From: an uncultured Christensenella sp.
GTDB taxonomy: Bacteria > Bacillota > Clostridia > Christensenellales > CAG-917
Direction of reading: 5' to 3'
Assembly (NCBI GenBank): GCA_910578325.1
Contig: CAJTQT010000001.1
Coordinates: 4,527-68,526, forward strand
DNA length: 64,000 nt
Part shown: positions 4,812 through 63,813 of the stretch, in pieces
How positions within the stretch are numbered: position 1 is the first letter of the stretch
How the letters are laid out: every line of letters begins with the position of its first letter
The notes under the pieces: model-generated
What the model saw: the letters and a program-made list of their open reading frames with translations, nothing else
Database searches by the model: none
Told to the model about the DNA's origin: nothing
Made by a program: the position numbers and the translations under genes

Positions 4812-6848
4812 ATGAAAAAGAAATCGGTTTTCATAATATCGGCGTTAATGCTAATTGTCGCGTGCATATTCGTTTTAGTTGCCTGCGACAATAACAACGA
4901 AAACAACGGCGGCAATAATAACACACCGTCTGCCGAATGGGGCGAAGTTTATACTGTGGACGCCGCATACGCCCGCGCCGCAGATTTGGGATATGCAGGC
5001 TCGCTTGAAGAATTCATCGCGCTTATAAGCGGTAAAGACGGCATTGACGGAACTAACGGAAAGGACGGTAAAGACGGTATAAACGGGACCGACGGAAAGG
5101 ACGGCATAAACGGAACAAACGGCAAAGACGGAGTGGACGGAATTAACGGAATCAATGGAAAGGACGGCATCGACGGTAAAGACGGAGTCGGCATTGTAGA
5201 CATAGAACTAACTTCATCGGGAAATTTGATAATTCGTCTATCCAACAATGAAAGCATCGACCTCGGAACAGTGTTCAAGTGCGAGCATTCCTATTCCGAC
5301 TGGCAAACCGTGCTCGAACCTACCTGCACCGCTGTCGGATACGATGTCCGCACCTGCACGAAATGCGACAGCAAGGATTATAAATTTTATGAACAACTGG
5401 GGCACGAATGGGACGACGCCTCAATCGCAATAGAACCCAACTGCTTTAATCGCGGTCTGAAGATATACGGATGTTTGGTATGCGACGCAACAAGAAGCGA
5501 AATTTTGGAAAAGCGGCATAACTATGTCGACGGCGTCTGCACCGTCTGCGAAACTCTCGAACCGACTGAAGATTTGCTGGACTTCACTCCTATTGAAGTT
5601 GGATATAGCGTCCGCATAAACCTCATCGAGCAACAATCGGCAAAAAACATTGTAATTCCCGACACATACAACGGATTACCCGTTACTCAAATTGAAATAA
5701 ACGGATTTCGCAATTGTACCGAACTTGAAAGCATATATATTCCTAACAGCATTACGTCTATTATGAACGACGCATTTGCTAATTGCTCAAAACTGAAGAA
5801 TATACATATTCCCGAAAGCGTTACGTATATAAATAAATCCGCATTCATAAGAATTCCTTTGGAAAATATAACGATAGATAAAAGAAACTCCGTTTATCAC
5901 AGTGCGGGAAACTGTATTATTGAGACCGAAAGTAAGACTCTGTTGACAGGTTGCCAAAACAGCGTCATACCCAGTGACGGTAGCGTTGTAAAAATCGGAA
6001 GTTACGCATTTTACCACTCTGCACTGACAAGTATCATCATCCCGGAAAGCATTGTTGAGATAGAAGACTATGCTTTTGGGCAGTGCATTGACTTGAAAGT
6101 GGTCTACAATTTTTCTGACCTGGATATTGTCAAGGGTTCTGCTAACCACGGTTTTGTGGCATATTATGCGGAAGATGTTTACACCGCTCTTGATAATGAC
6201 ACTAAGTATGATTCGATTATGTTCACGTTGACTAATGATTTAACCGGCTATGAAGTGCATGCAAGAAACAAATCAATCACGAGCGCGGAAATACCTGAGA
6301 CATACAAGGGCTTGCCGGTAAAAGAAATCGGCGACAGCGCATTTACTAATTGTACGGAACTCGAAAGCATACAAATTGCCGACAGCATTACACGCATAGG
6401 CAACAATGCATTTGCGAGATGCACAAAACTGAAAAGCCTGAATATTCCTAAAAGCGTAACGAATATCGGACGCAATATATTAACGCTTTCGGGAGTAGAA
6501 AATATAACCGTTGAAGAAGGGAACCCCGTTTTCCACAGCGACGGGAACTGTATTATAGAAACGGAAAGCAAAACATTGATTGTCGGCATAAATAACAGCA
6601 TTATCCCCCGAGACGGAAGTGTTAAAATAATCGGGGAATATGCGTTTCTCCTGTGCGAAGAGTTGACTCAAATCGTAATACCCGAGTGCATTGTCGAAAT
6701 CAAAGAAAGAGCGTTTATGAACTGCACCGCTCTAAAAACGGTTTATAATCTTTCTGCCTTAGATATTACAGTCGGCTCGTCTAAACACGGTAATATAGGA
6801 TCTTATGCCGAGAATATCTATACAACTCTTGAAGAAAACGTATTGTAA
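4812..6848 (+). CDS. Surface lipoprotein with collagen-like GXY repeats, a Cys-motif region and two BspA-type leucine-rich-repeat modules
   Basis: AAGGAG RBS. Signal peptide with lipobox LVAC (Cys25). 18 GXY triplets. CxxxGxxxxxCxxC..LGHEW motifs. Two paralogous LRR blocks (NCTELESIYIPNSITSI.. and NCTELESIQIADSITRI..). Confidence 0.8.
   Translation: MKKKSVFIISALMLIVACIFVLVACDNNNENNGGNNNTPSAEWGEVYTVDAAYARAADLGYAGSLEEFIALISGKDGIDGTNGKDGKDGINGTDGKDGINGTNGKDGVDGINGINGKDGIDGKDGVGIVDIELTSSGNLIIRLSNNESIDLGTVFKCEHSYSDWQTVLEPTCTAVGYDVRTCTKCDSKDYKFYEQLGHEWDDASIAIEPNCFNRGLKIYGCLVCDATRSEILEKRHNYVDGVCTVCETLEPTEDLLDFTPIEVGYSVRINLIEQQSAKNIVIPDTYNGLPVTQIEINGFRNCTELESIYIPNSITSIMNDAFANCSKLKNIHIPESVTYINKSAFIRIPLENITIDKRNSVYHSAGNCIIETESKTLLTGCQNSVIPSDGSVVKIGSYAFYHSALTSIIIPESIVEIEDYAFGQCIDLKVVYNFSDLDIVKGSANHGFVAYYAEDVYTALDNDTKYDSIMFTLTNDLTGYEVHARNKSITSAEIPETYKGLPVKEIGDSAFTNCTELESIQIADSITRIGNNAFARCTKLKSLNIPKSVTNIGRNILTLSGVENITVEEGNPVFHSDGNCIIETESKTLIVGINNSIIPRDGSVKIIGEYAFLLCEELTQIVIPECIVEIKERAFMNCTALKTVYNLSALDITVGSSKHGNIGSYAENIYTTLEENVL
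5031..5192 (+). repeat. Collagen-like triplet repeat (18 x Gly-X-Y) inside the lipoprotein gene
   Basis: aa 74-127 read GKD GID GTN GKD GKD GIN GTD GKD GIN GTN GKD GVD GIN GIN GKD GID GKD GVG. Confidence 0.85.
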
Positions 6849-24305: not shown

Positions 24306-25607
24306 TTACAAAACTTTTCTTAGAAACTCCTGCAATCTCGGGTGATCGGGATTTCCGAAAAACTCGGATGGCGCGCCCTGAGCCAGAATTTTGCCCTGCG
24401 CCATAAACAGTATACGCGTCCCCACCTCTCTTGCAAACGCCATTTCGTGAGTAACCACGACCATTGTCATTCCCTCGTCCGCAACCTGTTTAATGAGGTC
24501 GAGAACCTCTCCGACCATTTCGGGATCCAGCGCGGACGTCGGCTCGTCAAACAGCATAACTTTCGGACTCATCGCAAGCGCGCGGGCAATTGCGACGCGC
24601 TGTTTTTGACCGCCGCTCAGCGTGGACGGATAAACGTCCGCTTTTTCGGAGAGTCCGATACGTGCAAGCAGTCTGTCCGCAGTGTCCGACGCGTCCGTTT
24701 TTATCTGCTTTGCAGAGACGTATTCGGGCGAGACTTTCTCCCTCAGGCAGGCGTGCGCCTTACGTCCGATTTTACGCTCCGTCTTCTCTATTTTATCGGT
24801 GAGTTTAAGTTTTAAAGCGGTCAGTTTACTGTCGTATTCCACATACGATTTTCCCGCGATCTCCTTAGTGCCTTTTGTGCTTTCCCACGCAGAAAGTATA
24901 GGTTTAAGTTTCGTATTGAGCGATTCAAGTTCCGAATTGAGCCTTACAATGCATCTATCGACATAGTTGTTGTATGCATTCCCGAAAACCTTGTACCAGG
25001 CGTTATACACAGGCACCCAGACGTTTTTGAGTTTGGCTTTGCGCATATTCGCCAGCCCGATTCTGACAGGCGCAAGCATTATATTCTGCTTCACCGTCAT
25101 ATTGTTGAACAGATTGAATTGCTGAAACACCATTCCCATTTTCTGTCTGTGGATATTGATGTTCACCCTGACGTCCGCTATATCTACGCCGTCGAAAAAA
25201 ATCTTGCCTGCGGACGGATCTTCCAGACAGTTCAGGCAACGCAGAAACGTCGACTTTCCGCCGCCCGACGGTCCGATGACAACAACTCTTTCACCCTCGT
25301 ATATATCCGCGGAAATATCGTCAATAACAAGCAAATCTCCAAATTTTTTAGATAAATTTTTAACCTCGATAAGCGGGGCTTTTGCAGAACCCTTTTGCTT
25401 TGAAGCATCGGCAACCATCGCCGTTTCTCCTGCTTCCGAACGAGAGTCTGTCGCATTTATTCCGATTTTCAAACCAGTGTCCGCTCCGTAAGGCGCGTCT
25501 GATTCTTCCGCGTTTACGTTTTTGGAAACCTGCGTATCGACGTTTTCGTTTTCAGTGATATCTGCGGTTATGCCGTCAAAGCAAATGTTATTTTTAACGT
25601 CTTTCAC
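24306..25607 (-). CDS. Polar amino-acid ABC transporter ATPase (GlnQ/HisP type) with N-terminal extension and large internal insert
   Basis: Walker [11 protein letters not shown]-loop MVFQQFNLF, signature LSGGQKQR and Walker [12 protein letters not shown] are present. About 80 extra N-terminal aa and about 105 aa are inserted between the Q-loop region and the signature. GTG start overlaps the permease stop. Confidence 0.85.
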
Positions 25608-27387: not shown

Positions 27388-27416
27388 TTGACGGACGGCG
27401 GCAATTGATATATTAT
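27388..27416 (+). promoter_or_regulatory. Candidate sigma-A promoter for leuA
   Basis: TTGACG (27388-27393), a 17-nt spacer, then TATTAT (27411-27416), about 70 nt before the leuA ATG. Confidence 0.5.
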
Positions 27417-27486: not shown

Positions 27487-29001
27487 ATGAACAATAAAAA
27501 GATTATAATTTTTGATACCACCCTTCGCGACGGAGAACAATCTCCCGGATGCAGTATGCACATCGGCGAAAAACTCGACGTGGCGGAAGCGCTCGAATCT
27601 CTCGGAGTGGACGTAATCGAAGCGGGATTTCCCGCGGCGAGCGAAGGAGAGTTCAAAGCCGTGCAGGCAATTGCCGCAACCTGCAAGCGCAGCGCGGTAG
27701 CGGGGCTTTGCAGATGCAGGAAAACGGATATAAACAAAACCTACGAAGCGATTAAAAACGCTGTTCATCCGCGCATACACATCTTTATCGCCACATCCCC
27801 CGTACACCTTGAACGCAAATTGAAAATATCCGAATCGGAGTGTCTTGATATAATAGACGAATATACTCGCTATGCCCGCACGCTCGTAAGCGACGTGGAA
27901 TTCAGTTTCGAAGACGCTTCCCGTACGCCCGTCGAGTTTCTTACAAAAGCCACTCAAACCGCTGTCGACGCAGGCGCGACCACGGTAAATCTGCCGGACA
28001 CCACGGGCTACGCTACCCCGCAGGAAATATTCGGTATGATTACGCATATACGCAAAAACGTACGCGGTATCGACGGCGTGGTTTTATCGATGCACTGTCA
28101 CAACGACCTCGGAATGGCGGTTGCAAATTCACTCGCGGGCGTAAGCGCAGGCGCGCGTCAAATCGAATGCACTGTCAACGGCATAGGCGAGCGCGCAGGC
28201 AACGCGCCGCTCGAAGAAATCGTTATGGCGATAAAAACGCGGGAAAACTTTTTCAACGCGCGCACGGACATAAAGACATCTCTGCTGTATCGCACTTCAA
28301 AACTGGTTTCCAACATCGTCGGCGTAAAACTTCCCCCAAACAAAGCGGTGGTCGGAGCAAACGCTTTCGTACACGAATCCGGCATTCACCAGCACGGAAT
28401 ACTTCAAGACAAAGCGACGTATGAAATCATAAATCCCGAAGACGTCGGCATTCCCAAAAACACTCTTCTTCTGGGCAAACACAGCGGAAAGCACGCGTTT
28501 AAAGAGTTGATAACCGAAATGGGTTACACCCTCAACGACAGTCAGATCGACGACGTATTCCCCTCCTATAAAGCGCTTGCGGAGCGAAAAAAATCCCTGT
28601 CGCGCATTGACATCGACGCTCTTTTGAACGGCTACACGCGCAGAATAGTCAAACGTATTTATAAACTGAAAGAATACGATATCTCCACCTATAACAACAG
28701 CGCGGCGGCAACCGTTACGTTGGAATCCGACGGCAAACTCACCTCGGACAAGATGAGCGGCAACGGTCCTATCGACGCGGGATTTAAAGCGATAAGCGCG
28801 GCAACGGGACAGAACTTTAAACTCATCGACTATCAGGTGCACTCCGTTACGGGCGGAAAAGACGCGCTCGGCGACGCCACCGTCAAACTCGCACACGGAG
28901 ATATCCAGACAACCGGACAGGGCATTTCCACCGACGTGCTCGAAGCGTCGCTTTTAGCATATCTTGACGCAACAAACAAACTTCTGCAATACGAACAGTA
29001 A
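27487..29001 (+). CDS. leuA: 2-isopropylmalate synthase
   Basis: IFDTTLRDGEQSPG, HCHNDLGMAVANSLA and the C-terminal LeuA-dimer regulatory domain are present. 504 aa. Confidence 0.9.
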   Translation: MNNKKIIIFDTTLRDGEQSPGCSMHIGEKLDVAEALESLGVDVIEAGFPAASEGEFKAVQAIAATCKRSAVAGLCRCRKTDINKTYEAIKNAVHPRIHIFIATSPVHLERKLKISESECLDIIDEYTRYARTLVSDVEFSFEDASRTPVEFLTKATQTAVDAGATTVNLPDTTGYATPQEIFGMITHIRKNVRGIDGVVLSMHCHNDLGMAVANSLAGVSAGARQIECTVNGIGERAGNAPLEEIVMAIKTRENFFNARTDIKTSLLYRTSKLVSNIVGVKLPPNKAVVGANAFVHESGIHQHGILQDKATYEIINPEDVGIPKNTLLLGKHSGKHAFKELITEMGYTLNDSQIDDVFPSYKALAERKKSLSRIDIDALLNGYTRRIVKRIYKLKEYDISTYNNSAAATVTLESDGKLTSDKMSGNGPIDAGFKAISAATGQNFKLIDYQVHSVTGGKDALGDATVKLAHGDIQTTGQGISTDVLEASLLAYLDATNKLLQYEQ

Positions 29002-29079
29002 TCTTATCAAGTCAAAAACGACGTCGATAAAATCGCCGTAATTGACGAAACAAGCAGTTTATTTACATAAAACAAGCCT

Positions 29080-30633
29080 ATGAAATCTAAGATCGAACTT
29101 TTAGACACAACGTTACGCGACGGAGCGCAGGCGGTCGGAATCAGTTTTTCCGACTGCGACAAGTCCTGCATTCTATCCTTACTCGACAGCATCGGCATAA
29201 ATCTTATTGAAAGCGGAGTATCGAATCCGAAAGATCGCGAATTTCTGTCTAATACGAAAAATGCGAAACTTGTGTCGTTCGGGGCGACCTGCCGCAAGGA
29301 CTTTGTTCCTGCGCAAGACGAGGGGCTTAATTCGCTTGTAAATGCCGAAACGAGCACAGTATGCATATTCGGAAAATCCTGCGCCGAACAGGCTCGGCGC
29401 GTACTGGGCGTATCTGCCGAGCGCAATCTGCAAATTATACGGCAATCAGTGGAATATCTGAAATCAAAAGGCAAACGCGTTATTTTCGATGCGGAACACT
29501 TTTTCGACGCATATTTTCAGGATAGGCATTACGCTCTTTCGGCACTGCGCGCCGCGTTTGAATCTGGCGCGGACACGCTTGTGCTTTGCGACACCAACGG
29601 GGGCACTCTGCCGCAGCGCGTTTACGACGCAACTAAGGAAACGGTATGCGAATTTGCAAATTCTCCTCACTCCCCCGTTATCGGAATACACGCGCACAAC
29701 GACTGCGCGATGGCAGTCGCCTGCACGCTTGCGGCAGTCGACGCAGGCGCAAGACACGTTCAGGGCACCTTCCTCGGTTTCGGCGAAAGGTGCGGAAACG
29801 CAAACCTCTCTTCCGTCATAGCCAACCTGCATTTCAAGACAGAGTTCGAAACGGACTGCGACGTGAAAAATCTTACGGCGGCAGCACGCAAAATCGCTGA
29901 AATCTGCAATGTAAAACTTCCCGAAGATATGCCCTACGTTGGCGCGGCGGCTTTTGCCCATAAAGCGGGAATGCACGTCGACGCCGTTCTCAAAGACGAA
30001 CGGAGTTTCGAGCATATTCCCCCGTCGCAGGTGGGCAACGAACACCGATTGATTCTGAGCGAAGTATCGGGCAAAAGCGCGGTATCCGAAAAGTTGCAAA
30101 GCCTGTTTCCTCATATTGAGAGACAGCATCCGAAGACGAAAGAAATCCTCAATGAAATCAAAAATTTAGAAAAGGACGGATTCCAGTTCGATACGGCGGA
30201 CGCAAGTTTTGCACTGCTCGCCGAAAGGATACTCGAAGTGTATCAACCCTCTTTCAAACTCGTGCGGTATTCCATTCACGCAAGTCAACCGGACGGCACA
30301 AGCACCGCGGAAGTTTGCATAGACGTCGACGGAGTTGTCACATCTGTCACAGAAAACGGCAACGGTCCCGTTAACGCGCTGGATAAGGCTTTGCGCGGCG
30401 CGCTTATAAAACACTATCCGCAGATTGCAGATATGTGTCTGGAAGATTATAAAGTCCGAGTCGTCGACTTCGCCGCAGCAACGGGCGCAATGGTAAGAGT
30501 CCTCATAACCTCCTCCGACGGCAAAGACAGTTGGACTACGGTCGGCGTATCGCGGGATATAATAGAGGCAAGTTGGTTTGCGCTGCGCGACAGTTTCGAA
30601 TACAAACTGACGGGAAGAAGAAAGTTCCTTTAA
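29080..30633 (+). CDS. cimA: (R)-citramalate synthase-like DRE-TIM synthase
   Basis: LLDTTLRDGAQAVGISFS, IHAHNDCAMAVACTLA and a C-terminal LeuA-dimer domain are present. The 517-aa length and N-terminus are typical of CimA. Specificity is not provable from sequence alone. Confidence 0.75.
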   Translation: MKSKIELLDTTLRDGAQAVGISFSDCDKSCILSLLDSIGINLIESGVSNPKDREFLSNTKNAKLVSFGATCRKDFVPAQDEGLNSLVNAETSTVCIFGKSCAEQARRVLGVSAERNLQIIRQSVEYLKSKGKRVIFDAEHFFDAYFQDRHYALSALRAAFESGADTLVLCDTNGGTLPQRVYDATKETVCEFANSPHSPVIGIHAHNDCAMAVACTLAAVDAGARHVQGTFLGFGERCGNANLSSVIANLHFKTEFETDCDVKNLTAAARKIAEICNVKLPEDMPYVGAAAFAHKAGMHVDAVLKDERSFEHIPPSQVGNEHRLILSEVSGKSAVSEKLQSLFPHIERQHPKTKEILNEIKNLEKDGFQFDTADASFALLAERILEVYQPSFKLVRYSIHASQPDGTSTAEVCIDVDGVVTSVTENGNGPVNALDKALRGALIKHYPQIADMCLEDYKVRVVDFAAATGAMVRVLITSSDGKDSWTTVGVSRDIIEASWFALRDSFEYKLTGRRKFL

Positions 30634-30681: not shown

Positions 30682-31686
30682 ATGAAAACCGATTATAAAA
30701 TTCTTACACTCTGCGACGGAGCCGCGTCGGCGGAAACGATAGACTGCGCTAAACGTATACTCTGCTCCGTTGCGGCAAAGTCGCACGCAGAATTCACATT
30801 TGACGACTGCTCCCTGTCCGACATCTGCACGGAATCGGAAACGGACGCGCTCGAAAAAGCCAAACGCGCGCACGCCGTTTTATACGCGGCAACCGACGAT
30901 TCGCGCCAAAAAACGGCGTTGACACTGCTACGCAAATCCTTAGGTCTTTATGCCGAAACCCGCCGATATAATTCCGCAGTCGCAACGTCAACGTATTCCG
31001 CATCGAATGCCGATTCTAAAAAAGAATTCGATTTTATCACGGTATGCGACGCCGCGAGCGGAATCTGTTTCGGGGAACAGGGATATTCAAACAATCCCTC
31101 TTTCGGGCGGGAAGCGTATGACGTAGAAAGATACAGCGAACTCGAAATCGAACGCGTCGCACGCGTCGCATACGAACTTGCAGACCGCCGCCATAGAATT
31201 CTGACGCTTGCCGATAAAGCGGATTCGATGACGACCTCCAAACTGTGGCGCAAAATCGTCACGGATATAAACGAAGACTATCCTTACGTGCGCGTAGACG
31301 CTTTATCAACAGGCGAAGCGGCGGCAAAAATAGTTTCGGAGCCCTACTCGCAGGACGTAATTCTGACGTCGAATCTTTTCGGGAGCATTCTGAACGGAAT
31401 GTGCTCGGCGCTTGCCGATTCAGACAGCGTCGCTCAATCGTCTTTCGGAGAAACGGCGCTCGGAATTTACGGAGTGCAAACCGAGGGCGGCTCTATCTAT
31501 AACAACGGAGAAACTAATCCCTGCGGAATGATACTCGCCTGCGCGGATATGCTTAAAAACTCCTTCGACTTACAAACCGAAGCCGATATAATTGAAAAAG
31601 CGACAATCCGAACTATGTCGCAAATAAGGTCTTCCGGCAGTCTCCCGACAGCAGCGGTTTTGGAAGAAATCATAAAAGAGTTGTAA
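30682..31686 (+). CDS. Isocitrate/isopropylmalate dehydrogenase-family protein with degenerate catalytic motifs
   Basis: The length (334 aa) and the order of family blocks (DKA.., NLFG.IL.., ..NP.G.ILA.A.ML) fit LeuB. Several invariant residues appear substituted, as described in the findings. Confidence 0.65.
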   Translation: MKTDYKILTLCDGAASAETIDCAKRILCSVAAKSHAEFTFDDCSLSDICTESETDALEKAKRAHAVLYAATDDSRQKTALTLLRKSLGLYAETRRYNSAVATSTYSASNADSKKEFDFITVCDAASGICFGEQGYSNNPSFGREAYDVERYSELEIERVARVAYELADRRHRILTLADKADSMTTSKLWRKIVTDINEDYPYVRVDALSTGEAAAKIVSEPYSQDVILTSNLFGSILNGMCSALADSDSVAQSSFGETALGIYGVQTEGGSIYNNGETNPCGMILACADMLKNSFDLQTEADIIEKATIRTMSQIRSSGSLPTAAVLEEIIKEL

Positions 31687-31710
31687 AACACAACTCTATA
31701 ATAATGATTA

Positions 31711-31733
31711 AAAGCACGCAACTGCGTGCTTTT
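31711..31733. terminator. Bidirectional terminator between the leuB-like and ACP genes
   Basis: AAAGCACGC-AACT-GCGTGCTTT with A/T runs on both sides. Confidence 0.75.
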
Positions 31734-31789
31734 AAATTCCCCGCGAAAATCCGCGGCAAATAAAAGTTGTTATTTAACTCGAATACAAA

Positions 31790-32020
31790 TCATTTCGTTC
31801 TGGCTTCTATATAATCCGCCACGCTTTGCACTGTGGAAAATTTAAGCATATCTTCGTCGTCGATAACAAGTCCCCACTCCTCTTCGACGGTCATAAGCAT
31901 TTCCACAATATCGAGACTGTCCGCGCCGATATCTTCTTTGATTCTGCTATCCGCCTTTACCTCGCATTCTTCAATGCACATCTGCTCGGCAATAAGTTGC
32001 CTGACTCTGTCTAAAACCAT
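31790..32020 (-). CDS. Acyl carrier protein
   Basis: 76 aa. DIGADSLDIVEMLMTVEEEWG contains the phosphopantetheine-attachment DSL motif. Confidence 0.85.
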   Translation of the reverse strand: MVLDRVRQLIAEQMCIEECEVKADSRIKEDIGADSLDIVEMLMTVEEEWGLVIDDEDMLKFSTVQSVADYIEARTK

Positions 32021-32109: not shown

Positions 32110-32595
32110 TCAAATTACGTCCGCACTGTTTATGTCGTACGCTCTGATATTCTGCTCCTCCGCGCAAACGCAGGCGTGATAATCTCCGTATACAGGAAAG
32201 TGTTCGAAATGCGCGTCCTTAGGTATCTCGCACCTAAGCGCACCCAGTCCTTCACCCGTAAATTTAAGATAACTCTCTCTTTCCGTCCACTTCTCGAAAA
32301 ACTCTTCCTCGTCCTGCGCTTCGATAAAACCGAATTTAGCAAAGTCTATTGGACGCACCTTTTCGATATCCACCCCTATCGGCGAGTGGGATATGCCGAG
32401 CATAACCGCGCCGTAAGAATGCGACAGATTGAAATATACCGAATCCGTATCCAGACGGGGCTTTTGTCCCTCTTCCCGAATCACGCTTACTTTTTTAGGC
32501 AGGTCTTCGTCGCCGATAATATCGCGATAGTAGTTATAACAATATCCGACAAACTTATCGCTGTCAACCTCGCCTCTGGTAAAAAACAGTATCAT
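32110..32595 (-). CDS. Short Sfp-type 4'-phosphopantetheinyl transferase
   Basis: Motifs KPRL, FNLSHS, GVDIEKV and WTERESYLKFTGEG are present. At only 161 aa it is shorter than typical Sfp enzymes. Confidence 0.75.
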   Translation of the reverse strand: MILFFTRGEVDSDKFVGYCYNYYRDIIGDEDLPKKVSVIREEGQKPRLDTDSVYFNLSHSYGAVMLGISHSPIGVDIEKVRPIDFAKFGFIEAQDEEEFFEKWTERESYLKFTGEGLGALRCEIPKDAHFEHFPVYGDYHACVCAEEQNIRAYDINSADVI

Positions 32596-39403: not shown

Positions 39404-39862
39404 ATGTCGAAACTTGTCTATAGGCTTAAAACACTTTTTGATAGTTATGATTTATCAACCGTAACTGGACAACAAGCGTTAGAAATCAGCAAAACACAAT
39501 TAGGTAGATACTTATCGGGATTTTATGTGCCGTCATTAAAAAACGCAATAAAGATTTGTGATTACTTTGACTGTTCACTGGATTACCTACTTGGTATAGA
39601 CGAAGAAAAAAATCGATTCGGAAATTTTGAAGAACCTAATTTTGAGATTTTTTCAAAAAGATTCCTACAAATTCTCAGCGAGCACAATTTAAGCATATAT
39701 CAGGTTGCGAAGAAATTAGAAATCAATAGAAACAATTGGACTTATTGGAATAAGAAAAAAACTTTACCGACTTTGGAAACAATTTATAAGTTGGCTAAAG
39801 AGTTCGAAGTATCTGCCGAATTCCTAATCGGTCGGACAAAAATTAAAAAAGGATCACTATGA
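39404..39862 (+). CDS. Dual-HTH XRE-family regulator, paralog 1
   Basis: Two Cro/C1-type HTH modules are present (..ISKTQLGRYLSG..AIKICDYFDCSLDYLLG and ..IYQVAKKLEINRNNWTYW..LAKEFEVSAEFLIGR). AAGGTGG RBS. Confidence 0.8.
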   Translation: MSKLVYRLKTLFDSYDLSTVTGQQALEISKTQLGRYLSGFYVPSLKNAIKICDYFDCSLDYLLGIDEEKNRFGNFEEPNFEIFSKRFLQILSEHNLSIYQVAKKLEINRNNWTYWNKKKTLPTLETIYKLAKEFEVSAEFLIGRTKIKKGSL

Positions 39863-40293
39863 ATTTCAATCTAAGATTAAAAGAACTTCTTGACGAACAA
39901 GAGATTTCTGCAAGAAAACTGTGCGAACAAATAGGTATCGACCATACGTCGATATATATGTATTTACAAGGCGGTTATCCAAATTTAGAAAACGCAGTTA
40001 AAATTGCGAACTATTTCGACTGTACGCTAAATTTCTTGTTCTGTATTGATGAACTTCCTAATCAATATAAGTTTTTCTATGAATATAATGCAGGCTTATT
40101 TTTCAAAAGATACACGGATTTATTACGACTAAACAAAATCTCTCATTACAAGGTCGGTAAGGAACTGAAATTAGGGAATTCTACATTTAAAAAATGGCAA
40201 AGTGGCTGCATCCCTAAAATCGAAACGCTGACAAAACTATCAAAATATTTTGGCTACTCTATTGATTACCTCGTTGGTCGTAGCGATACGTAA
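39859..40293 (+). CDS. Dual-HTH XRE-family regulator, paralog 2
   Basis: Same two-module layout as paralog 1 (..ARKLCEQIGIDHTSIYMYL..IANYFDCTLNFLF and ..HYKVGKELKLGNSTFKKW..LSKYFGYSIDYLVGRSD). ATGA start/stop overlap with paralog 1. Confidence 0.8.
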   Translation: MNFNLRLKELLDEQEISARKLCEQIGIDHTSIYMYLQGGYPNLENAVKIANYFDCTLNFLFCIDELPNQYKFFYEYNAGLFFKRYTDLLRLNKISHYKVGKELKLGNSTFKKWQSGCIPKIETLTKLSKYFGYSIDYLVGRSDT

Positions 40294-40305
40294 AGGATAA
40301 AACAT

Positions 40306-40749
40306 ATGACCGAATTTACAAGAATTTTAAAAGAATTATTAGATGAACAAAACACTACAATTCGTTCTTTAAGTCCGCAAATTGGTATTCCCTACCAGGA
40401 ACTGTACACATACGTTAATGATGATTATTTTCCGTCAATATATAACGCCGAAAAACTTGCGAACTATTTCGACTGTTCGTTTGATTATCTCTTCGGTCTT
40501 TCAGATACTTTTAAAACATCCGAATTTAAAGAAGTCGACATTTCTAAATTTTATCCGAGGTACTTAGAATTATTACAAGAAAACAAAATTAGCCACCACC
40601 ATTTATACAAAACATTAGGGTTGAGCAAATCAGGTCTGAGTAAATGGAGAAACGGTTCTGTTCCAAAGATTGAAAGCCTGTTAAAAATCGCCAAATTTTT
40701 TGGCACTCACATAGATTATTTAGTAGGACGTAGCGACATAAGGTATTAG
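40306..40749 (+). CDS. Dual-HTH XRE-family regulator, paralog 3
   Basis: Same layout (..LANYFDCSFDYLFG and ..IAKFFGTHIDYLVGRSD). AAGGA RBS. Lies 12 nt after paralog 2. Confidence 0.8.
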   Translation: MTEFTRILKELLDEQNTTIRSLSPQIGIPYQELYTYVNDDYFPSIYNAEKLANYFDCSFDYLFGLSDTFKTSEFKEVDISKFYPRYLELLQENKISHHHLYKTLGLSKSGLSKWRNGSVPKIESLLKIAKFFGTHIDYLVGRSDIRY

Positions 40750-59415: not shown

Positions 59416-62400
59416 ATGAACAAGAAGAAATTTACTGTACTGGCTCTACTGATGGTTGTGATACTTACGCTCACCACCTGCCTGTTCGTTGCCTGCAACC
59501 CCGATAATTCGGACGACGGCACGAATAAGGAAATCAAGGCGACGGAAGGATTGCTCATCAACAACAGCGACTTCAAGGTCGTGGACACGTCCGTAAAGAC
59601 GTATCCGCGCTCACTGACGAGTTGGACGGGCGCGAAGATGTATTCGACGAGCACGTTCAGAGACGACGTAACCGCGGGTATTATAAACCTCGAACAGTCG
59701 TTGTACAACGCGAACAAGTCGAAGTGGGAAGACGTTGACGACGTCATTCGCGAGAAACTTCTCGCAGGCGGAAGATACGGTTCCGACGACGAAATCAAAA
59801 ACGCGCTTATGATTTATATGCCCGAGGAAACCACAAACAGCAACGGCAATAAAATCCACGGCGCAACCGCATACGGCTATACGTCCACGAGTTTCACTCT
59901 CGACAAAGGTTCGTACTATAAACTCACCGTCGACGTACTCACCTACGACATCGCAGGCGAAAAAGACGACAAGGGCAACCCCGTCGAGGGAAGCCAGCCC
60001 GGAGCGCGCATTTACGTAAGTTCCAACACTTACGCCGAATTTGCGGGCATCGACACGAAGGGCGAGTGGAAGACTTACACCATTTATATCGAAACGGCTC
60101 CCGCCGCTACAACCAGCCTTACGCTTCAACTCGGTCTGGGTAAATATCAATCCTACTTCACCAAAGGTCTGACGACGGGATATGCGTTTTTCGATAACGT
60201 TCTTCTCGAAAAAATCGAAGAAGACGGCTCCGAAAAATTCGCTGACGCTTTGGAGCAGGAAAAGACCGACGGCGGAGTTGCAACCGCTACTCTGAAAGTT
60301 CCCAACGGACGTTTCGAGTTCGGCTCCACCACCATTTCGTCTTCCGGCGCGCCCAGTTCCTGGACGCTCACTCCCGGCAACAGCGGCAAGGACGATCCCG
60401 CACCCTCTTCTCTGGGCTACAACGCGGTTATCGATCTGAGCAAATTTGCCGACAACTATACAAAGTATTCCTCGACATATCACACCAGAAGCGGCGACAA
60501 CTCCACTAATACGGAATATATCCCCGCCAAAAATCTGAGCAACATCGTCGATTTGATTACCGCGTACGAAGGCAGAGTCGGCAACAACGCCTTTATGCTC
60601 TCCCAGCAACTTATGACCGCTCAGGGCATAAAGTCCTCTCGTACTATCACAATCGAAAAGAACAAAATCTATAAACTCTCCGTTCAACTGTACACTTACG
60701 CAATCCACGGAGCGGGCGTTTCGCTTATCCTTACCGGAAGCGACGGCAAGGACATCGTCATAAAGGGCATTTCCTCCGCGCCGTCCGACAACGTGTTTAT
60801 CGGTTCGACCATTATAGACCCCGACAACAAGGGCTATACCAGCGGCGAAGACACGGGCGCGAGCACAAACGGCTGGACAACGTATTCCTTCTATATTCAG
60901 GGCAACCAGTTCAAAGATTATTCGTACAATATGAACATCTGGCTGGGTACGGAAGGCACAAACAGCAATAAGCAGGTCAAATATCACAGTTACACATCCA
61001 ACTCCGACAACGCGACGACTTATCGCGCCAACGGAACGTTCTCGAACGGCTGGGTGTTTATCGACGACCTCGCTCTTGACGAAATCAGCGTACTCCCCGA
61101 GGCTGACGCAGGCGTCGGCATTATGGGCGCAAACGAAAATCAGACTCTCGACTGCGCAGTAAGCGGCAACAATTACACATCTCTCCTTGTCGACCTGACG
61201 ACTGATAACCTCTTTGGCGAAGGAGAAGATTACATGCTCGATAACGCGTCCGGCAAGACGTCTCTCGACGGCATCAACGCAATCGGAAGCGGCGCGCCGA
61301 AAGGCTGGAAGAGCAACTTCGACGTCACCGACGAATCGAATCCCGTCATCGCGGATAACTCGGGCGAGAGTTTCATAAGCGAAGGCATCGTTGACCTCAC
61401 AAGCGAAAGCACTTTCAAAACCGCTGTCGGCGACGCGCACGTCTATCCCGGTCTACCTTACAACACCGTTTCCAAAAACGCGTATATGATGCACTCCGCA
61501 AAAGTCGGATATTTCGAAGTAGACACGGATACGTTAACAATCAAAGCGAATCAATTCTACCGCATCTCACTGTGGCTCAAAACGACGGACGTCAGCGCGA
61601 CAAGCGGCGCGTACGTATACCTCGTCGATAAATCCGCCGAGGAAGAAGCGAATCTGACCAGTTTCACTAAAATCAACACCAAAGATTACGACGAGTATCT
61701 CAACGACTGGTGCGAAATCACAATGGTCATTCGCGGCGCGTCCGACAAAGACACCGACGTTGCGTTGCGCTTCACTCTGGGTACAGGCAACAGATTTGCC
61801 GCGTCCACTTTGACGAGCGGCGCGCTGTTCATCACAAATATGAATATGTCCACCATTACGTATGCAAACTTCAACGATACGAAGACGAGCACCTACGTAA
61901 AATCCGTGGATATGAGCGAATCGTATACCTACACTTTCACAAACGGAAACTTTGACGATTACGACCTCGACGACGAGAATCTTGCGGACGGCAAGCCCCT
62001 CAAAGAGCAGGACGTTGCCGCAACTCCCGACGAGTGGACAATCAACGACAATACGCTCGATATAAACGGCAAAAACGATTCCACCCTCTTCGCGGGCGTT
62101 ATCGCGCTCACTCCCGACGAGGACAGACTGCACTTCTCCACCAGCCATCAGGCTGAAACGGCGACCGGCATATCTTCGGATATTTTCAACAACTTCTATG
62201 ACGTTGACAATTATTCCGAGGAATACCTCAATTCGCTCGGCGGTCCGAATATGCTTGCAATAGGCAGCAAGGACGACAAGAGTTATGCCGCGGGCTTCGC
62301 TTCCGCAAGCGTAACGCTTTCGGCGAACACCTATTACAGCCTCAGCGTTTACGTCAAAACCGTAGGAAAAACGACTGCGAGCGTATTCCTCACAGGTGAA

Positions 62401-63813
62401 TCCAGCGCAACCGGCGAGAACGCGTTCATAATTCAACAGACCGCGTCCAACGGCGACTGGACGAAATACACTTTCTATATCGAAGTCGGCAACGCAAGCG
62501 TTTCCGTCAAACTCAACCTGTGGCTCGGAAGAGACGTTAAATATATGAACGTCGAAGGCGACGGCGAAGAGGAAAAAGAAGAGAACGCCAAATCTTCGGG
62601 CGCGGTATTCTTTGACAATATCAACTATCAGACTATCGACGAGGAAACTTACAACGAGTCCGCAGATATAGAAAGCAACAAAAAGATATCCTTCCTCACC
62701 GACAGTTTCGACTCGCTTTCCAGCACTATCGAATCCAGAAGTTCCCTCACCACCCCCAACGGCTGGACGGGAGCGGCGGATACCAACCAGAGCACTTCGA
62801 ACACCAAATCGGGTATTGCTTACGCAGACAGCGATTACTATGAAACCGAAATGGTGGACGGCACTCTCTACGCGAGACTGCTCGGCGTCGACTACAAGAT
62901 AGAAGACGTCAAAATAACCGACGAGGAACTCGAAGAGGCAAAAGAAAGCGGCAATTACGAAGATATGGAAGACTCCGATATCATCGCCGCGCTCAAAGAA
63001 AAGAAAGTGCTCGACCAGAAGAAAGAAAACTGGATTCCCGTCAGCGAACTCAAAGCGTTCAGCGGAAACAGAATGCTCGTCATCAACAACACCGTCAAGA
63101 GCGCGTACCGCTACACAAGTTCCTCCAACACTCTCAAAGAGAACAGTTGGTACAGAGTCAGCGTATACGTCCGCACTTACGGTCTTATCGGAGAAGATGA
63201 CGACGATACTATCGGCGCAAACGTCGAACTGTATCTCGGCTCCGCAAACGAATCCGACAATCCGTTCATCTTCAAAGCAATAAACACCCAGAAGCCCGAA
63301 ACGGAAGTCTCCCCCGCATCCAACGAATGGACTCGCTATGAGTTCTACGTAAAGACGCTCGACGACGACATCACTTCTGTCACAATCAAACTTTCGCTCG
63401 GCTCATATTCTTCTAACAACATCGACGGCGAAGACGTTGTCAAAGGTCTGACAAGCGGTTACGCGATGTTCGACGACGTCACGATTGAAAAAATCGACGA
63501 AGATACTTTTGAAAAAGTTGAAGAGAGCGATACCGTTCTCAAACGTACAGTAGCGGCATATCAACCGGGCGACAGCAATGATCCCGGAGAGAACGATACG
63601 CCTAACAATAAATTCAACCTCGATTATCTGTGGTGGATGATCCCGACCATCGTAATCGGACTTGTTATCATAATCGTTGTTATAGTCTTAGTCGTCCGCA
63701 AAGTTCGCAAGAATATGGTCGGCAACAAGAAGAAAGTCAAGAAATCGAATGCCCCGACGCGCTCGGAAGCAATCGACCACAAGCACAGCAGATACGACGA
63801 AGGCAAAGAATAA
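59416..63813 (+). CDS. Large surface protein: lipobox signal, five CBM/jelly-roll-like repeat modules, C-terminal TM anchor
   Basis: Lipobox LFVAC (Cys27). Five modules each carry the series YYKLTVDV / EWKTYTIYIE / LTLQLGLG / GYAFFDNVLLEKI, with variants at about aa 420, 715, 974 and 1246. TM helix at aa 1405-1427 followed by a Lys/Arg tail. Confidence 0.8.
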   Translation: MNKKKFTVLALLMVVILTLTTCLFVACNPDNSDDGTNKEIKATEGLLINNSDFKVVDTSVKTYPRSLTSWTGAKMYSTSTFRDDVTAGIINLEQSLYNANKSKWEDVDDVIREKLLAGGRYGSDDEIKNALMIYMPEETTNSNGNKIHGATAYGYTSTSFTLDKGSYYKLTVDVLTYDIAGEKDDKGNPVEGSQPGARIYVSSNTYAEFAGIDTKGEWKTYTIYIETAPAATTSLTLQLGLGKYQSYFTKGLTTGYAFFDNVLLEKIEEDGSEKFADALEQEKTDGGVATATLKVPNGRFEFGSTTISSSGAPSSWTLTPGNSGKDDPAPSSLGYNAVIDLSKFADNYTKYSSTYHTRSGDNSTNTEYIPAKNLSNIVDLITAYEGRVGNNAFMLSQQLMTAQGIKSSRTITIEKNKIYKLSVQLYTYAIHGAGVSLILTGSDGKDIVIKGISSAPSDNVFIGSTIIDPDNKGYTSGEDTGASTNGWTTYSFYIQGNQFKDYSYNMNIWLGTEGTNSNKQVKYHSYTSNSDNATTYRANGTFSNGWVFIDDLALDEISVLPEADAGVGIMGANENQTLDCAVSGNNYTSLLVDLTTDNLFGEGEDYMLDNASGKTSLDGINAIGSGAPKGWKSNFDVTDESNPVIADNSGESFISEGIVDLTSESTFKTAVGDAHVYPGLPYNTVSKNAYMMHSAKVGYFEVDTDTLTIKANQFYRISLWLKTTDVSATSGAYVYLVDKSAEEEANLTSFTKINTKDYDEYLNDWCEITMVIRGASDKDTDVALRFTLGTGNRFAASTLTSGALFITNMNMSTITYANFNDTKTSTYVKSVDMSESYTYTFTNGNFDDYDLDDENLADGKPLKEQDVAATPDEWTINDNTLDINGKNDSTLFAGVIALTPDEDRLHFSTSHQAETATGISSDIFNNFYDVDNYSEEYLNSLGGPNMLAIGSKDDKSYAAGFASASVTLSANTYYSLSVYVKTVGKTTASVFLTGESSATGENAFIIQQTASNGDWTKYTFYIEVGNASVSVKLNLWLGRDVKYMNVEGDGEEEKEENAKSSGAVFFDNINYQTIDEETYNESADIESNKKISFLTDSFDSLSSTIESRSSLTTPNGWTGAADTNQSTSNTKSGIAYADSDYYETEMVDGTLYARLLGVDYKIEDVKITDEELEEAKESGNYEDMEDSDIIAALKEKKVLDQKKENWIPVSELKAFSGNRMLVINNTVKSAYRYTSSSNTLKENSWYRVSVYVRTYGLIGEDDDDTIGANVELYLGSANESDNPFIFKAINTQKPETEVSPASNEWTRYEFYVKTLDDDITSVTIKLSLGSYSSNNIDGEDVVKGLTSGYAMFDDVTIEKIDEDTFEKVEESDTVLKRTVAAYQPGDSNDPGENDTPNNKFNLDYLWWMIPTIVIGLVIIIVVIVLVVRKVRKNMVGNKKKVKKSNAPTRSEAIDHKHSRYDEGKE

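Follow-up and report, generated by a model that had tools for sequence, protein, structure and literature searches.

Known pseudoenzymes are mostly duplicates that stand beside an active paralog. HisZ, a dead HisRS paralog, regulates HisG in histidine biosynthesis and, to our knowledge, always co-occurs with this target. Within the PF00180 superfamily, the human IDH3 beta/gamma and yeast IDH1 chains (PDB 5gre, 6kde, 3blv) are catalytically dead yet selected; they are paralogs beside a catalytic partner, keep their ligand pocket for allostery and show by example that a dead subunit can act through a dimer. For the canonical 3-isopropylmalate dehydrogenase LeuB (EC 1.1.1.85, TIGR00169; PDB 1cm7, 2ayq, 2y3z), the roles of the catalytic, substrate-binding and metal-binding residues have been compiled (PMC9041340, citing Pallo 2014 and Miyazaki & Oshima 1993), and the catalytic pair Tt Tyr139/Lys185 corresponds to Tyr145/Lys195 of the Escherichia coli enzyme (Ec; PMC9041340).

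We describe a LeuB derivative with an eroded active site, leuB', from Christensenellales. It resembles canonical LeuB in fold, ancestry and chromosomal position, in the conservation of a block at residues 141-203 and in Lys195Ec, Arg99Ec and Arg109Ec, but differs from it at Tyr145Ec, Arg138Ec, Asp227/251/255Ec, Asn197Ec and both NAD loops, and also by a score below the family cut-off, the absence of a leuCD partner and an approximately 3-4 times faster evolution. The IDH3 beta/gamma and yeast IDH1 chains match leuB' weakly (E 1e-9 to 1e-11) and share with it the superfamily and the apparent combination of catalytic death and selection. Unlike these subunits, however, leuB' would be the ortholog itself, with a pocket eroded lineage by lineage, and no catalytic partner was detected in an exact-motif scan of the metagenome-assembled genomes (MAGs) of the 39 other carriers, which is a weak search. 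HisZ, a bacterial pseudoenzyme as well and likewise linked to an amino-acid operon, could serve as a model for an action of leuB' on LeuA or CimA, but in most species leuB' lacks a neighbouring leuA or cimA. With the relic biosynthetic genes of reduced host-associated genomes, finally, leuB' shares the stepwise loss of an ilv-leu operon; it differs from them by intact ORFs, an omega of 0.14-0.29, an invariant block and a retained promoter-like element. In the literature, we found no account of a dead or moonlighting LeuB, nor of a clade with eroded leuB.

Results

A leuA-cimA-leuB' remnant operon

The window, which is the whole 64 kb stretch of DNA that was analysed, carries an operon remnant with the following features:

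27388..27416, + strand: promoter-like element TTGACG-N17-TATTAT, about 70 nt 5' of leuA (consensus scan)
27487..29001, + strand: leuA, 2-isopropylmalate synthase, 504 aa, apparently functional (NF002086, TIGR00973, domains)
29080..30633, + strand: cimA, citramalate synthase, 517 aa, apparently functional (TIGR00977)
30682..31686, + strand: leuB', LeuB derivative with an eroded active site, 334 aa (PF00180, TIGR00169, residue mapping, AF2, Foldseek, synteny)
31708..31735, unstranded: terminator-like hairpin with a 12-bp stem, between leuB' and a convergent ACP gene (consensus scan)

The order leuA-cimA ahead of the ORF, proposed in an earlier note on this DNA that had been made by eye, holds at profile level: LeuA reaches 705.5 bits with NF002086 (cut-off 532) and 647.5 bits with TIGR00973 (cut-off 598.7) and has the HMGL-like, HCS_D2 and LeuA_dimer domains, while CimA reaches 559.9 bits with TIGR00977 (cut-off 450). 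Among genomes without leuCD, identity amounts to 77-81% for LeuA (75% in a divergence-matched canonical pair) and to 65-70% for CimA (72% in the matched canonical pair). Judged from their sequences, both genes are thus apparently functional. Neither leuC nor leuD, whose absence the note had also reported, nor ilvB, ilvN or a second leuB was found within the 64 kb window by tblastn and a Pfam survey.

In its extended form, TTGACG-N11-13-TTGNTATATTAT, the promoter-like element occurs only 8 times in 1.96 Mb (both strands), and all 8 matches lie directly 5' of the first gene of a remnant operon: leuA in the window and in locus L040, and a solitary leuB' in loci L002, L006, L007, L008, L018 and L051. 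Hairpins analogous to that of the window also follow the solitary leuB' of L002 and L003. An SD-like sequence is present for leuB' in the window, and in L040 and L041 the cimA stop and the leuB' start overlap by 4 bp. The window leuB' would accordingly be co-transcribed with leuA and cimA from a conserved promoter, ending at the hairpin terminator. A T-box, riboswitch or other leader RNA was rejected, as Rfam at gathering threshold gave 0 matches in the window, L002, L003, L020 and L040. A CodY-box operator was rejected as well: a scan gave 7 matches at 3 mismatches where chance predicts 5.2, which is not significant.

The leuB' ORF, intact and 334 aa long as the note had it, starts with ATG and is free of in-frame stops, whereas the other two forward frames contain 17 and 13 stops. 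Its product matches Pfam PF00180 over residues 18-314 with 148.9 bits (cut-off 27, E=2.8e-43), compared with 431.8 bits for the canonical LeuB of a neighbour lineage (L020). Its top NCBIfam match is leuB, but with 164 bits it stays below the cut-off of the LeuB equivalog TIGR00169 (353.2), and NF002898 gives 84.6 bits against a cut-off of 393. The AF2 model has a pLDDT of 90.2 and a pTM of 0.89 (pLDDT 83.5 with an alignment of degenerate sequences only), and Foldseek aligns it to IPMDH structures with TM scores of 0.80-0.86. The protein is a clear LeuB homologue of the PF00180 superfamily, and it is predicted to have kept the LeuB fold. It contains 10 Cys (3.0%), while canonical LeuB has about 1%. 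pI and net charge do not differ between canonical and degenerate proteins and give no bulk hint of nucleic-acid binding. A role in anti-phage defence was discarded, because PADLOC returned no match for leuB'; one relative had marginal AbiEi matches only (E ~0.003).

Replacement of catalytic, metal-binding and NAD-binding residues

We mapped the residues of leuB' with phmmer to the IPMDH structures of E. coli, Salmonella and Haemophilus influenzae (1cm7, 1cnz, 6xxy), using E. coli numbering. Two regions with former active-site positions are:

31045..31068, + strand: former substrate-Arg/catalytic-Tyr strand, VCDAASGIC for VRELTGGIY, with C122 at 31045-31047 and C129 at 31066-31068 (phmmer, direct reading)
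31312..31398, + strand: former metal-ligand positions G211 (31312-31314), S235 (31384-31386) and G239 (31396-31398) (phmmer; roles from PMC9041340)

Two of the three substrate Arg are kept (Ec R99 as R84, R109 as R94) and the third is replaced (R138 by C122). In the catalytic pair, Ec Y145 has become C129 and K195 is kept as K179; Ec N197 corresponds to D181. All three metal-ligand Asp are replaced (Ec D227 by G211, D251 by S235, D255 by G239), and so are both NAD-binding loops (GDGIG by DGAAS, and E..HGSAPDIAG by G.QTEGGSIYNNG); loop 270-274 has an AF2 pLDDT below 50. The formal alignments to PF00180 and by phmmer, a check the earlier note had asked for, reproduce its by-eye register and its reading of a substrate Arg and the catalytic Tyr as Cys beside a retained Lys. 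It had counted two metal-ligand Asp as lost, which is right for D251 and D255 but overlooks the third, D227. The note had named conservation of the Arg/Tyr/Lys/Asp set on a profile alignment as the outcome that would overturn its reading; the set is not conserved. Having lost the catalytic Tyr, the three Mg/Mn-binding Asp, both NAD loops and a substrate Arg out of three, leuB', to judge from its residues, cannot work as an isopropylmalate dehydrogenase, as the note had suggested.

Across the clade of related eroded proteins, the former pocket residues are kept in 0-39% of members, except for the Tyr (68%), the Lys (61%) and Asp251Ec (84%), and Asp227Ec is kept in 3%. The pattern of erosion varies from subgroup to subgroup. 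The sole derived residue found clade-wide is E->D123, and several lineages have Arg->Cys at position 122.

Orthology and loss of leuCD in Christensenellales

A synteny table of 59 loci, in which all relatives are MAGs, places leuB' in a family history. Related Christensenellales with the gene order ilvBN-leuA-cimA-leuCD-leuB carry a canonical LeuB. A further 39 reference species lack leuCD, and the LeuB of each has an eroded active site; the canonical or degenerate state of LeuB thus tracks the presence or absence of leuCD perfectly. The genes leuC, leuD, ilvB and ilvN are present at the 15 canonical loci that reach far enough upstream and nowhere else, with no leuC or leuD at any degenerate locus or in the 64 kb window. 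What remains in the window is leuA-cimA-leuB', while in most species leuB' stands without adjacent leuA or cimA. Across species, the order of decay is leuCD first, then cimA (L024), then leuA. The eroded genes form one clade in 500 of 500 neighbour-joining bootstraps, although long-branch attraction between rapidly evolving sequences may have raised this support for monophyly. The family comprises at least 50 clusters at 50% identity with at most 5 of 8 catalytic residues, and it is carried by some 40 related Christensenellales species of gut and rumen.

By its synteny, leuB' is the positional ortholog of leuB. It is not a paralog, the example that the earlier note had raised: the gene occupies leuB's own position, left after deletion of leuCD and ilvBN.

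Purifying selection and an invariant block in domain 2

An uninterrupted frame was found in 38 of 39 species; off-frames contain about 11 stops in every 300 codons. Omega lies at 0.14-0.29 in 7 independent clade pairs, with all upper confidence bounds under 0.5 and none of 2000 bootstraps reaching 1. On these estimates, the eroded leuB clade is kept under purifying selection, which fits the pseudo-enzyme, or protein turned to another use, that the earlier note had suggested. For the window copy, the indication is indirect: it keeps 44 of 45 clade-conserved positions (rank 29 of 38), the omega values being those of the clade. No relative of the window protein above ~48% identity turned up in a 5.8-billion-protein search, a 185k-genome scan and a 1.8-billion-representative search; selection on its terminal branch is therefore not directly measurable, and a recent loss of function would stay invisible.

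Conservation coexists with fast change. leuB' is 42-48% identical where MalQ is 84-88% identical, its protein evolves about 3-4 times as fast as canonical LeuB at matched genome divergence, and in many lineages it is down to 268-335 aa. An intact frame, a clade omega well below 1 and the presence of promoter-like and SD-like sequences and of a terminator-like hairpin nevertheless distinguish leuB' from a pseudogene.

Constraint is strongest in one segment:

31102..31290, + strand: clade-invariant block, residues 141-203 (FGREAYDVERYSELEIERVARVAYELADRRHRILTLADKADSMTTSKLWRKIVTDINEDYPYV) (clade conservation, block omega, AF2 secondary structure)

These 63 residues are nearly invariant in the protein, and those of them that are invariant and at the surface are E153, E155, E157, R158, R161, W189, R190, K191, D195, N197, E198 and D199. 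In the AF2 model they span the second arm strand, helix 153-169, strand 173-178, directly past which K179 sits, helix 184-199 and the start of strand 204-209. Mean conservation of the block (15-residue windows, 38-member degenerate clade) is 0.58-0.91 and equals that of canonical LeuB. Omega is 0.00-0.23 in the block and 0.15-0.38 in the flanks; since dS is equal in both, we rejected a DNA- or RNA-level cause of its conservation. The helix bundle of the dimer interface (residues 210-245), in contrast, is only 33-56% conserved in the clade, and dimerisation of leuB' is therefore not assured.

Discussion

We consider it probable that leuB' is a folded, non-catalytic LeuB ortholog that survived the loss of leuCD, is probably dimeric and would act by binding a partner through residues 141-203. 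The ancestral operon ilvBN-leuA-cimA-leuCD-leuB would have lost leuCD (and ilvBN) and left leuB behind. leuB' has dropped the residues for oxidative decarboxylation while keeping the LeuB fold. Selection has retained the clade as intact, promoter-equipped ORFs, with the strongest constraint on residues 141-203. We infer that leuB' persists as a folded, probably dimeric non-catalytic module whose conserved block most likely binds a partner.

A regulatory subunit, either in a heteromer with a catalytic relative from elsewhere in the genome (canonical LeuB or another enzyme of the Iso_dh family), in the manner of IDH3 beta/gamma with alpha, or as a modulator of LeuA or CimA, in the manner of HisZ with HisG, is an unlikely alternative, although several observations point in its direction. 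The window protein and 61% of the clade retain the catalytic Lys, which LeuB donates to the site of the partner subunit; the arm region, too, is conserved; leuA and cimA are normally constrained in the window, L040 and L041; and in the latter two loci leuB' is translationally coupled to cimA. Against this, Asp227Ec, the other partner-donated residue, survives in just 3% of members, and an exact shared-motif scan of the MAGs, weak as such a search is, found one locus per genome and no second canonical LeuB in the 39 carriers other than the window genome. A role linked to leuA and cimA is unlikely as the general function of leuB', because most carriers keep the gene with neither as a neighbour. 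Nor are the pocket residues conserved, which makes an allosteric ligand site like that of IDH3-gamma improbable.

It is improbable, too, that leuB' in the window genome is a relic of a broken operon, still open because of a recent inactivation or of selection against toxic truncated or misfolded products. The stepwise decay of the operon across species would suit a relic, as would a divergence far above that of its neighbours (42-48% identity versus 84-88% for MalQ) and the shortening to 268-335 aa in many lineages, and the window branch offers no close relative from which an omega could be measured. Yet 38 of 39 frames are open despite dS-saturated divergence, omega is 0.14-0.29 and not 1, and the 63-residue block is invariant in the protein while its synonymous sites diverge normally. 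The window copy also carries 44 of the 45 clade-conserved residues, and the promoter-like element still fronts solitary copies.

There is little to recommend a neofunctionalised enzyme with a pocket rebuilt for another chemistry or ligand, for example from Cys122 and Cys129 with Lys179, Arg84 and Arg94, an option that the earlier note had held out and that our data disfavour. The flanks are under purifying selection within subgroups (omega 0.15-0.38), and the two Arg and the Lys are indeed kept in a Cys-rich window protein (10 Cys, 3.0%) whose Cys122 recurs in several lineages; CGN to TGN is, however, a single easy transition, so that a recurrent Cys needs no selection. A new chemistry would further have to be reconciled with pocket positions that erode lineage by lineage and differ among subgroups, with E->D123 as the only clade-wide residue in place of a common new set, with the disappearance of both NAD loops and with a loop 270-274 of pLDDT below 50. 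It is scarcely credible that leuB' still works as a 3-isopropylmalate dehydrogenase by means of an unusual active site: the significant PF00180 match, the best NCBIfam match to leuB and the position behind leuA and cimA would fit, but replacements affect the catalytic Tyr, a substrate Arg, all three metal ligands and the NAD loops, 164 bits stand against a 353-bit equivalog cut-off, and the window has no leuCD for substrate supply.

The loss of the catalytic residues has consequences for annotation. leuB' passes the PF00180 threshold and its canonical relatives are named "3-isopropylmalate dehydrogenase"; reconstructions based on domains or orthology can therefore miscredit the LeuB step, and with it leucine/isoleucine prototrophy, to gut and rumen Christensenellales MAGs. 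Current annotation still counts the leuB' family as LeuB. leuB' is cleanly marked by the absence of leuCD combined with a TIGR00169 score far under the cut-off, and it should not be taken for a functional gene of leucine biosynthesis. If the monophyly of the clade is real, leuA and cimA have stayed under normal constraint with no leuCD beside them, a hint that the pathway may go on at another site of the genome. In the window, the constraint on these two genes prompts one to ask what 2-isopropylmalate and citramalate serve for, or where the remaining pathway is located.

In the case of leuB', a single ortholog appears to have lost its chemistry after deletion of partner genes, yet purifying selection maintains it across dozens of lineages that diverged deeply. 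That an ortholog was retained after such a loss implies that a textbook biosynthetic enzyme had a second role beforehand, and a second, non-enzymatic LeuB role would outlive the leucine pathway. We tentatively suggest, with somewhat more doubt than conviction, that LeuB of Christensenellales has an old second, non-catalytic (moonlighting) role in residues 141-203, for example towards a protein or nucleic-acid partner, and that this role alone kept the gene after pathway loss and gave rise to an order-wide pseudoenzyme family. The leuB' clade may serve as a natural "separation-of-function" allele series for finding the second role of LeuB.

Loss of the LeuB active site

The open reading frame at 30682-31686 (+), which together with its eroded counterparts in related genomes we call leuB', is intact as first read by eye: it starts with ATG and encodes 334 amino acids without an in-frame stop, whereas the alternative forward frames hold 17 and 13. 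Its protein significantly matches PF00180, the isocitrate/isopropylmalate dehydrogenase superfamily (E=2.8e-43, 148.9 bits), and its top NCBIfam model is leuB (TIGR00169) at 164 bits, below the curated cut-off of 353.2 bits. In isopropylmalate dehydrogenase (IPMDH), Tyr145 and Lys195 (E. coli numbering) form the catalytic pair, Asp227', Asp251 and Asp255 bind the metal, and positions 99, 109 and 138 bind the substrate (PMC9041340, citing Pallo 2014 and Miyazaki & Oshima 1993). Residues were mapped with phmmer alignments to IPMDH structures from E. coli, Salmonella and H. influenzae, with positions numbered on the E. coli chain.

Table. E. coli LeuB positions and their counterparts in leuB' of the window (residues from the phmmer alignments)
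Arg99: R84, kept
Arg109: R94, kept
Arg138: C122
Tyr145: C129
Lys195: K179, kept
Asn197: D181
Asp227: G211
Asp251: S235
Asp255: G239
N-terminal GDGIG loop: DGAAS
E..HGSAPDIAG loop: G.QTEGGSIYNNG

Because all three structures give the register read by eye, and given the published residue roles, every motif replacement listed in the earlier note is borne out, as is the retained lysine. Asp251 and Asp255 are indeed gone, but they are not "both" metal ligands, as a third, Asp227, has become Gly and had been missed. Judged by its residues, the window protein is shown to be beyond LeuB chemistry.

Cys takes the place of Arg138 in several separate degenerate lineages (the window; loci L018, L042 and L044; search sequences P0085, P0098 and P0104), and the window protein holds 10 Cys (3.0%) versus about 1% in canonical LeuB. 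This recurrence may need no more explanation than the ease of CGN to TGN transitions.

A positional ortholog left behind by leuCD

A scan with one genome per species yielded 55 loci, nearly all in gut and rumen MAGs assigned to Christensenellales or uncultured Clostridia. LeuB is canonical, with all motifs intact, in 17 of them, including one Burkholderiales outgroup (L053); the remaining loci are degenerate. The 15 canonical loci that reach far enough upstream share one gene order (Pfam on the canonical locus L020, tblastn), while leuCD is missing in every degenerate locus, a perfect correlation between active-site erosion and leuCD loss.

Gene orders
Canonical loci: ilvB-ilvN-leuA-cimA-leuC-leuD-leuB
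Window and the nearest MAGs, L040 and L041: leuA-cimA-leuB'
L024: leuA-leuB'
All other degenerate loci: leuB' alone

In the window, leuA (705 bits, cut-off 532) and cimA (560 bits, cut-off 450) lie directly upstream as described before, and tblastn with L020 proteins plus a Pfam survey of 20 further ORFs found no leuC or leuD in the 64 kb, again as noted, nor ilvB, ilvN or a second leuB. The surroundings are otherwise common to all loci, with a divergent amino-acid ABC transporter upstream, preceded by holA, DAC and DUF1015, and on the downstream side a PPTase-like gene, MalQ, Hom, CoaX and GlyRS in some and Rex in others. Because this neighbourhood is otherwise identical, leuB' is the positional ortholog of leuB; the earlier view of a pseudo-enzyme rather than a working IPMDH thus stands on the lost residues, but that of a paralog does not. 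These data show leuB' to be the ortholog remaining once leuCD was deleted.

At equal genome divergence (MalQ about 85% identical), canonical LeuBs are 85% identical versus just 42-48% for leuB'. LeuA and CimA match the conservation of a canonical pair even in leuCD-less genomes, LeuA standing at 77-81% versus 75% in that pair and CimA at 65-70% versus 72%. leuA and cimA (window 27487-30633; also L040, L041 and L024) are under normal constraint without adjoining leuCD or ilvBN. Either the missing pathway steps are encoded elsewhere, or 2-isopropylmalate and citramalate are otherwise used in these organisms.

Expression signals

In the 1.96 Mb scanned there are 8 copies of a promoter-like element, TTGACG-N11-13-TTGNTATATTAT, each right before the first gene of the remnant operon; L024 carries a looser form.

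Putative signals
Window 27388-27416: promoter-like element directly upstream of leuA, consensus match
L040 6807: promoter-like element before leuA
L002 9942, L006 9870, L007 8625, L008 9916, L018 9902, L051 9654: promoter-like element before leuB' itself
Window 31708-31735: hairpin with 12-bp stem 3' of leuB', putative terminator, consensus match

The element persisted when leuA and cimA were deleted and stands directly 5' of solitary leuB', copies of which are also trailed by similar hairpins. In L040 and L041, the cimA stop and the leuB' start share a 4-bp overlap; the window spacer is 48 bp, with a Shine-Dalgarno-like AAGG..GAG. At gathering score, Rfam gave no family (no tRNA, riboswitch or T-box) across the 64 kb.

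Selection on a domain-2 block

Of 39 degenerate species, 38 have one uninterrupted ORF of 268-373 aa; the exception (L057) has ambiguous bases, and what looked like an internal stop in L036 is the gene's own terminating codon. In the other two forward frames of these ORFs, stops number about 11 per 300 codons. Pairwise dN/dS (Nei-Gojobori, NG86) is 0.14-0.29 in seven phylogenetically independent degenerate pairs, with every bootstrap confidence interval staying under 0.5 and a value of 1 reached in 0 of 2000 replicates, and 0.04-0.19 in canonical pairs.

Residues 141-203 (FGR.A.D...SELEIER.AR.AYE.A...L.D...S.LWRKIV.D.NEDYP.V) are near-invariant across the clade, with conservation equal to that of real enzymes. 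NAD loops are retained in 0-29% of members and pocket residues mostly in 0-39%, except Tyr (68%), Lys (61%) and Asp251 (84%). Omega is 0.00-0.23 in the block and 0.15-0.38 in its flanks; since dS is equal in both, the block is conserved at the protein and not the DNA or RNA level. Purifying selection, concentrated on this block, is thus shown to maintain the degenerate clade.

Predicted fold and extent of the clade

An AlphaFold2 model, a check proposed in the earlier note, predicts a LeuB-like fold (mixed alignment: pLDDT 90.2, pTM 0.89), with only loops 104-109 and 270-274, the latter the former NAD loop, below 50. With degenerate relatives only (pLDDT 83.5, pTM 0.85), secondary structure is unchanged and the arm hairpin 129-149 is less confident in the monomer. 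Because of this confidence and Foldseek TM-scores of 0.80-0.86 to solved IPMDHs, leuB' is predicted still to fold as a LeuB-like two-domain protein.

In a large protein search, the only 100% match was the window protein itself, everything else being at most 44% identical, and about 35 of 122 retrieved sequences were likewise eroded at catalytic motifs, in several differing patterns. A neighbour-joining tree places the degenerate clade within canonical Christensenellales LeuBs and separates the two in 500 of 500 bootstraps, support that long-branch attraction could raise in such a distance tree. The sole clade-wide derived residue is Glu to Asp at query position 123 (84% of members). The group is large and old, because the best 150 matches of an exhaustive profile search, run over 1.84 billion cluster representatives, include at least 50 clusters (50% identity) with at most 5 of 8 catalytic residues. 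Some representatives from this search, P0149, P0166, P0173 and P0186, have the GDGIG NAD loop and lack several catalytic residues; they may be separate LeuB erosion events in other taxa.

Other genes in the window

24306-25607 (-): 433-aa ABC-transporter ATPase adjoining the operon, with an N-terminal extension and a charged, coiled-coil-like insertion of about 100 aa between ABC motifs; in L002 and L003, the homologues (355 aa) likewise have a split PF00005 match
31790-32020 (-): 76-aa acyl-carrier-protein gene (PP-binding), convergent on leuB'
32110-32595 (-): 161-aa gene with a weak 4'-phosphopantetheinyl-transferase match (ACPS, E=4.8e-4), convergent on leuB', a neighbour conserved across the window lineage
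4812-6848 (+): probable surface or adhesion protein of 678 aa, carrying collagen triple-helix repeats and leucine-rich repeats of the BspA type
39404-40749 (+): between glyRS and rex, a tandem of three small HTH genes of the XRE family (152, 144 and 147 aa)
59416-63813 (+): very long ORF, 1465 aa

Discussion

On evidence that is all computational and drawn from MAGs, we are confident that leuB' is dead but retained. The protein would persist folded, non-catalytic and probably dimeric, its function residing in the second arm strand, helix 153-169, strand 173-178, helix 184-199 and the start of strand 204-209. Partner binding would be its most plausible action, although as a mechanism we propose it only tentatively, and a second role of LeuB would have survived the loss of the leucine pathway. 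Taken together, a folded non-catalytic LeuB-derived module acting through its conserved block by partner binding is the reading we favour, with reservations.

A regulatory subunit of a catalytic relative, or of LeuA/CimA, would fit the retained Lys179 and the continued constraint on leuA and cimA, but is improbable, as leuB' is solitary in most species and the motif scan of MAGs, which returned one locus per genome, detected no second copy. Slightly less probable still is a non-functional relic in the window genome specifically. Selection was measured at the level of the clade, because the window protein has no close relative; of the 45 positions with at least 85% conservation among the other 37 members, it keeps 44 (rank 29 of 38), missing only an Asp, now Ser235. 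The neofunctionalised enzyme raised in the earlier note is disfavoured, and new chemistry quite unlikely, as the clade has no common new residue set. That leuB' is an IPMDH still at work is scarcely credible given the residues lost.

Canonical LeuB and leuB' are alike in fold and locus, but the chemistry is gone in leuB'. The dead regulatory subunits of NAD-IDH belong to the same superfamily; these, however, are paralogs that have a catalytic partner and keep their allosteric pocket, neither of which was seen for leuB'. The literature searched yielded no account of a LeuB that is dead or moonlighting. We rate leuB' as a pseudoenzyme made by converting the ortholog itself following pathway loss, a clean and surprising evolutionary pattern that bears directly on annotation.
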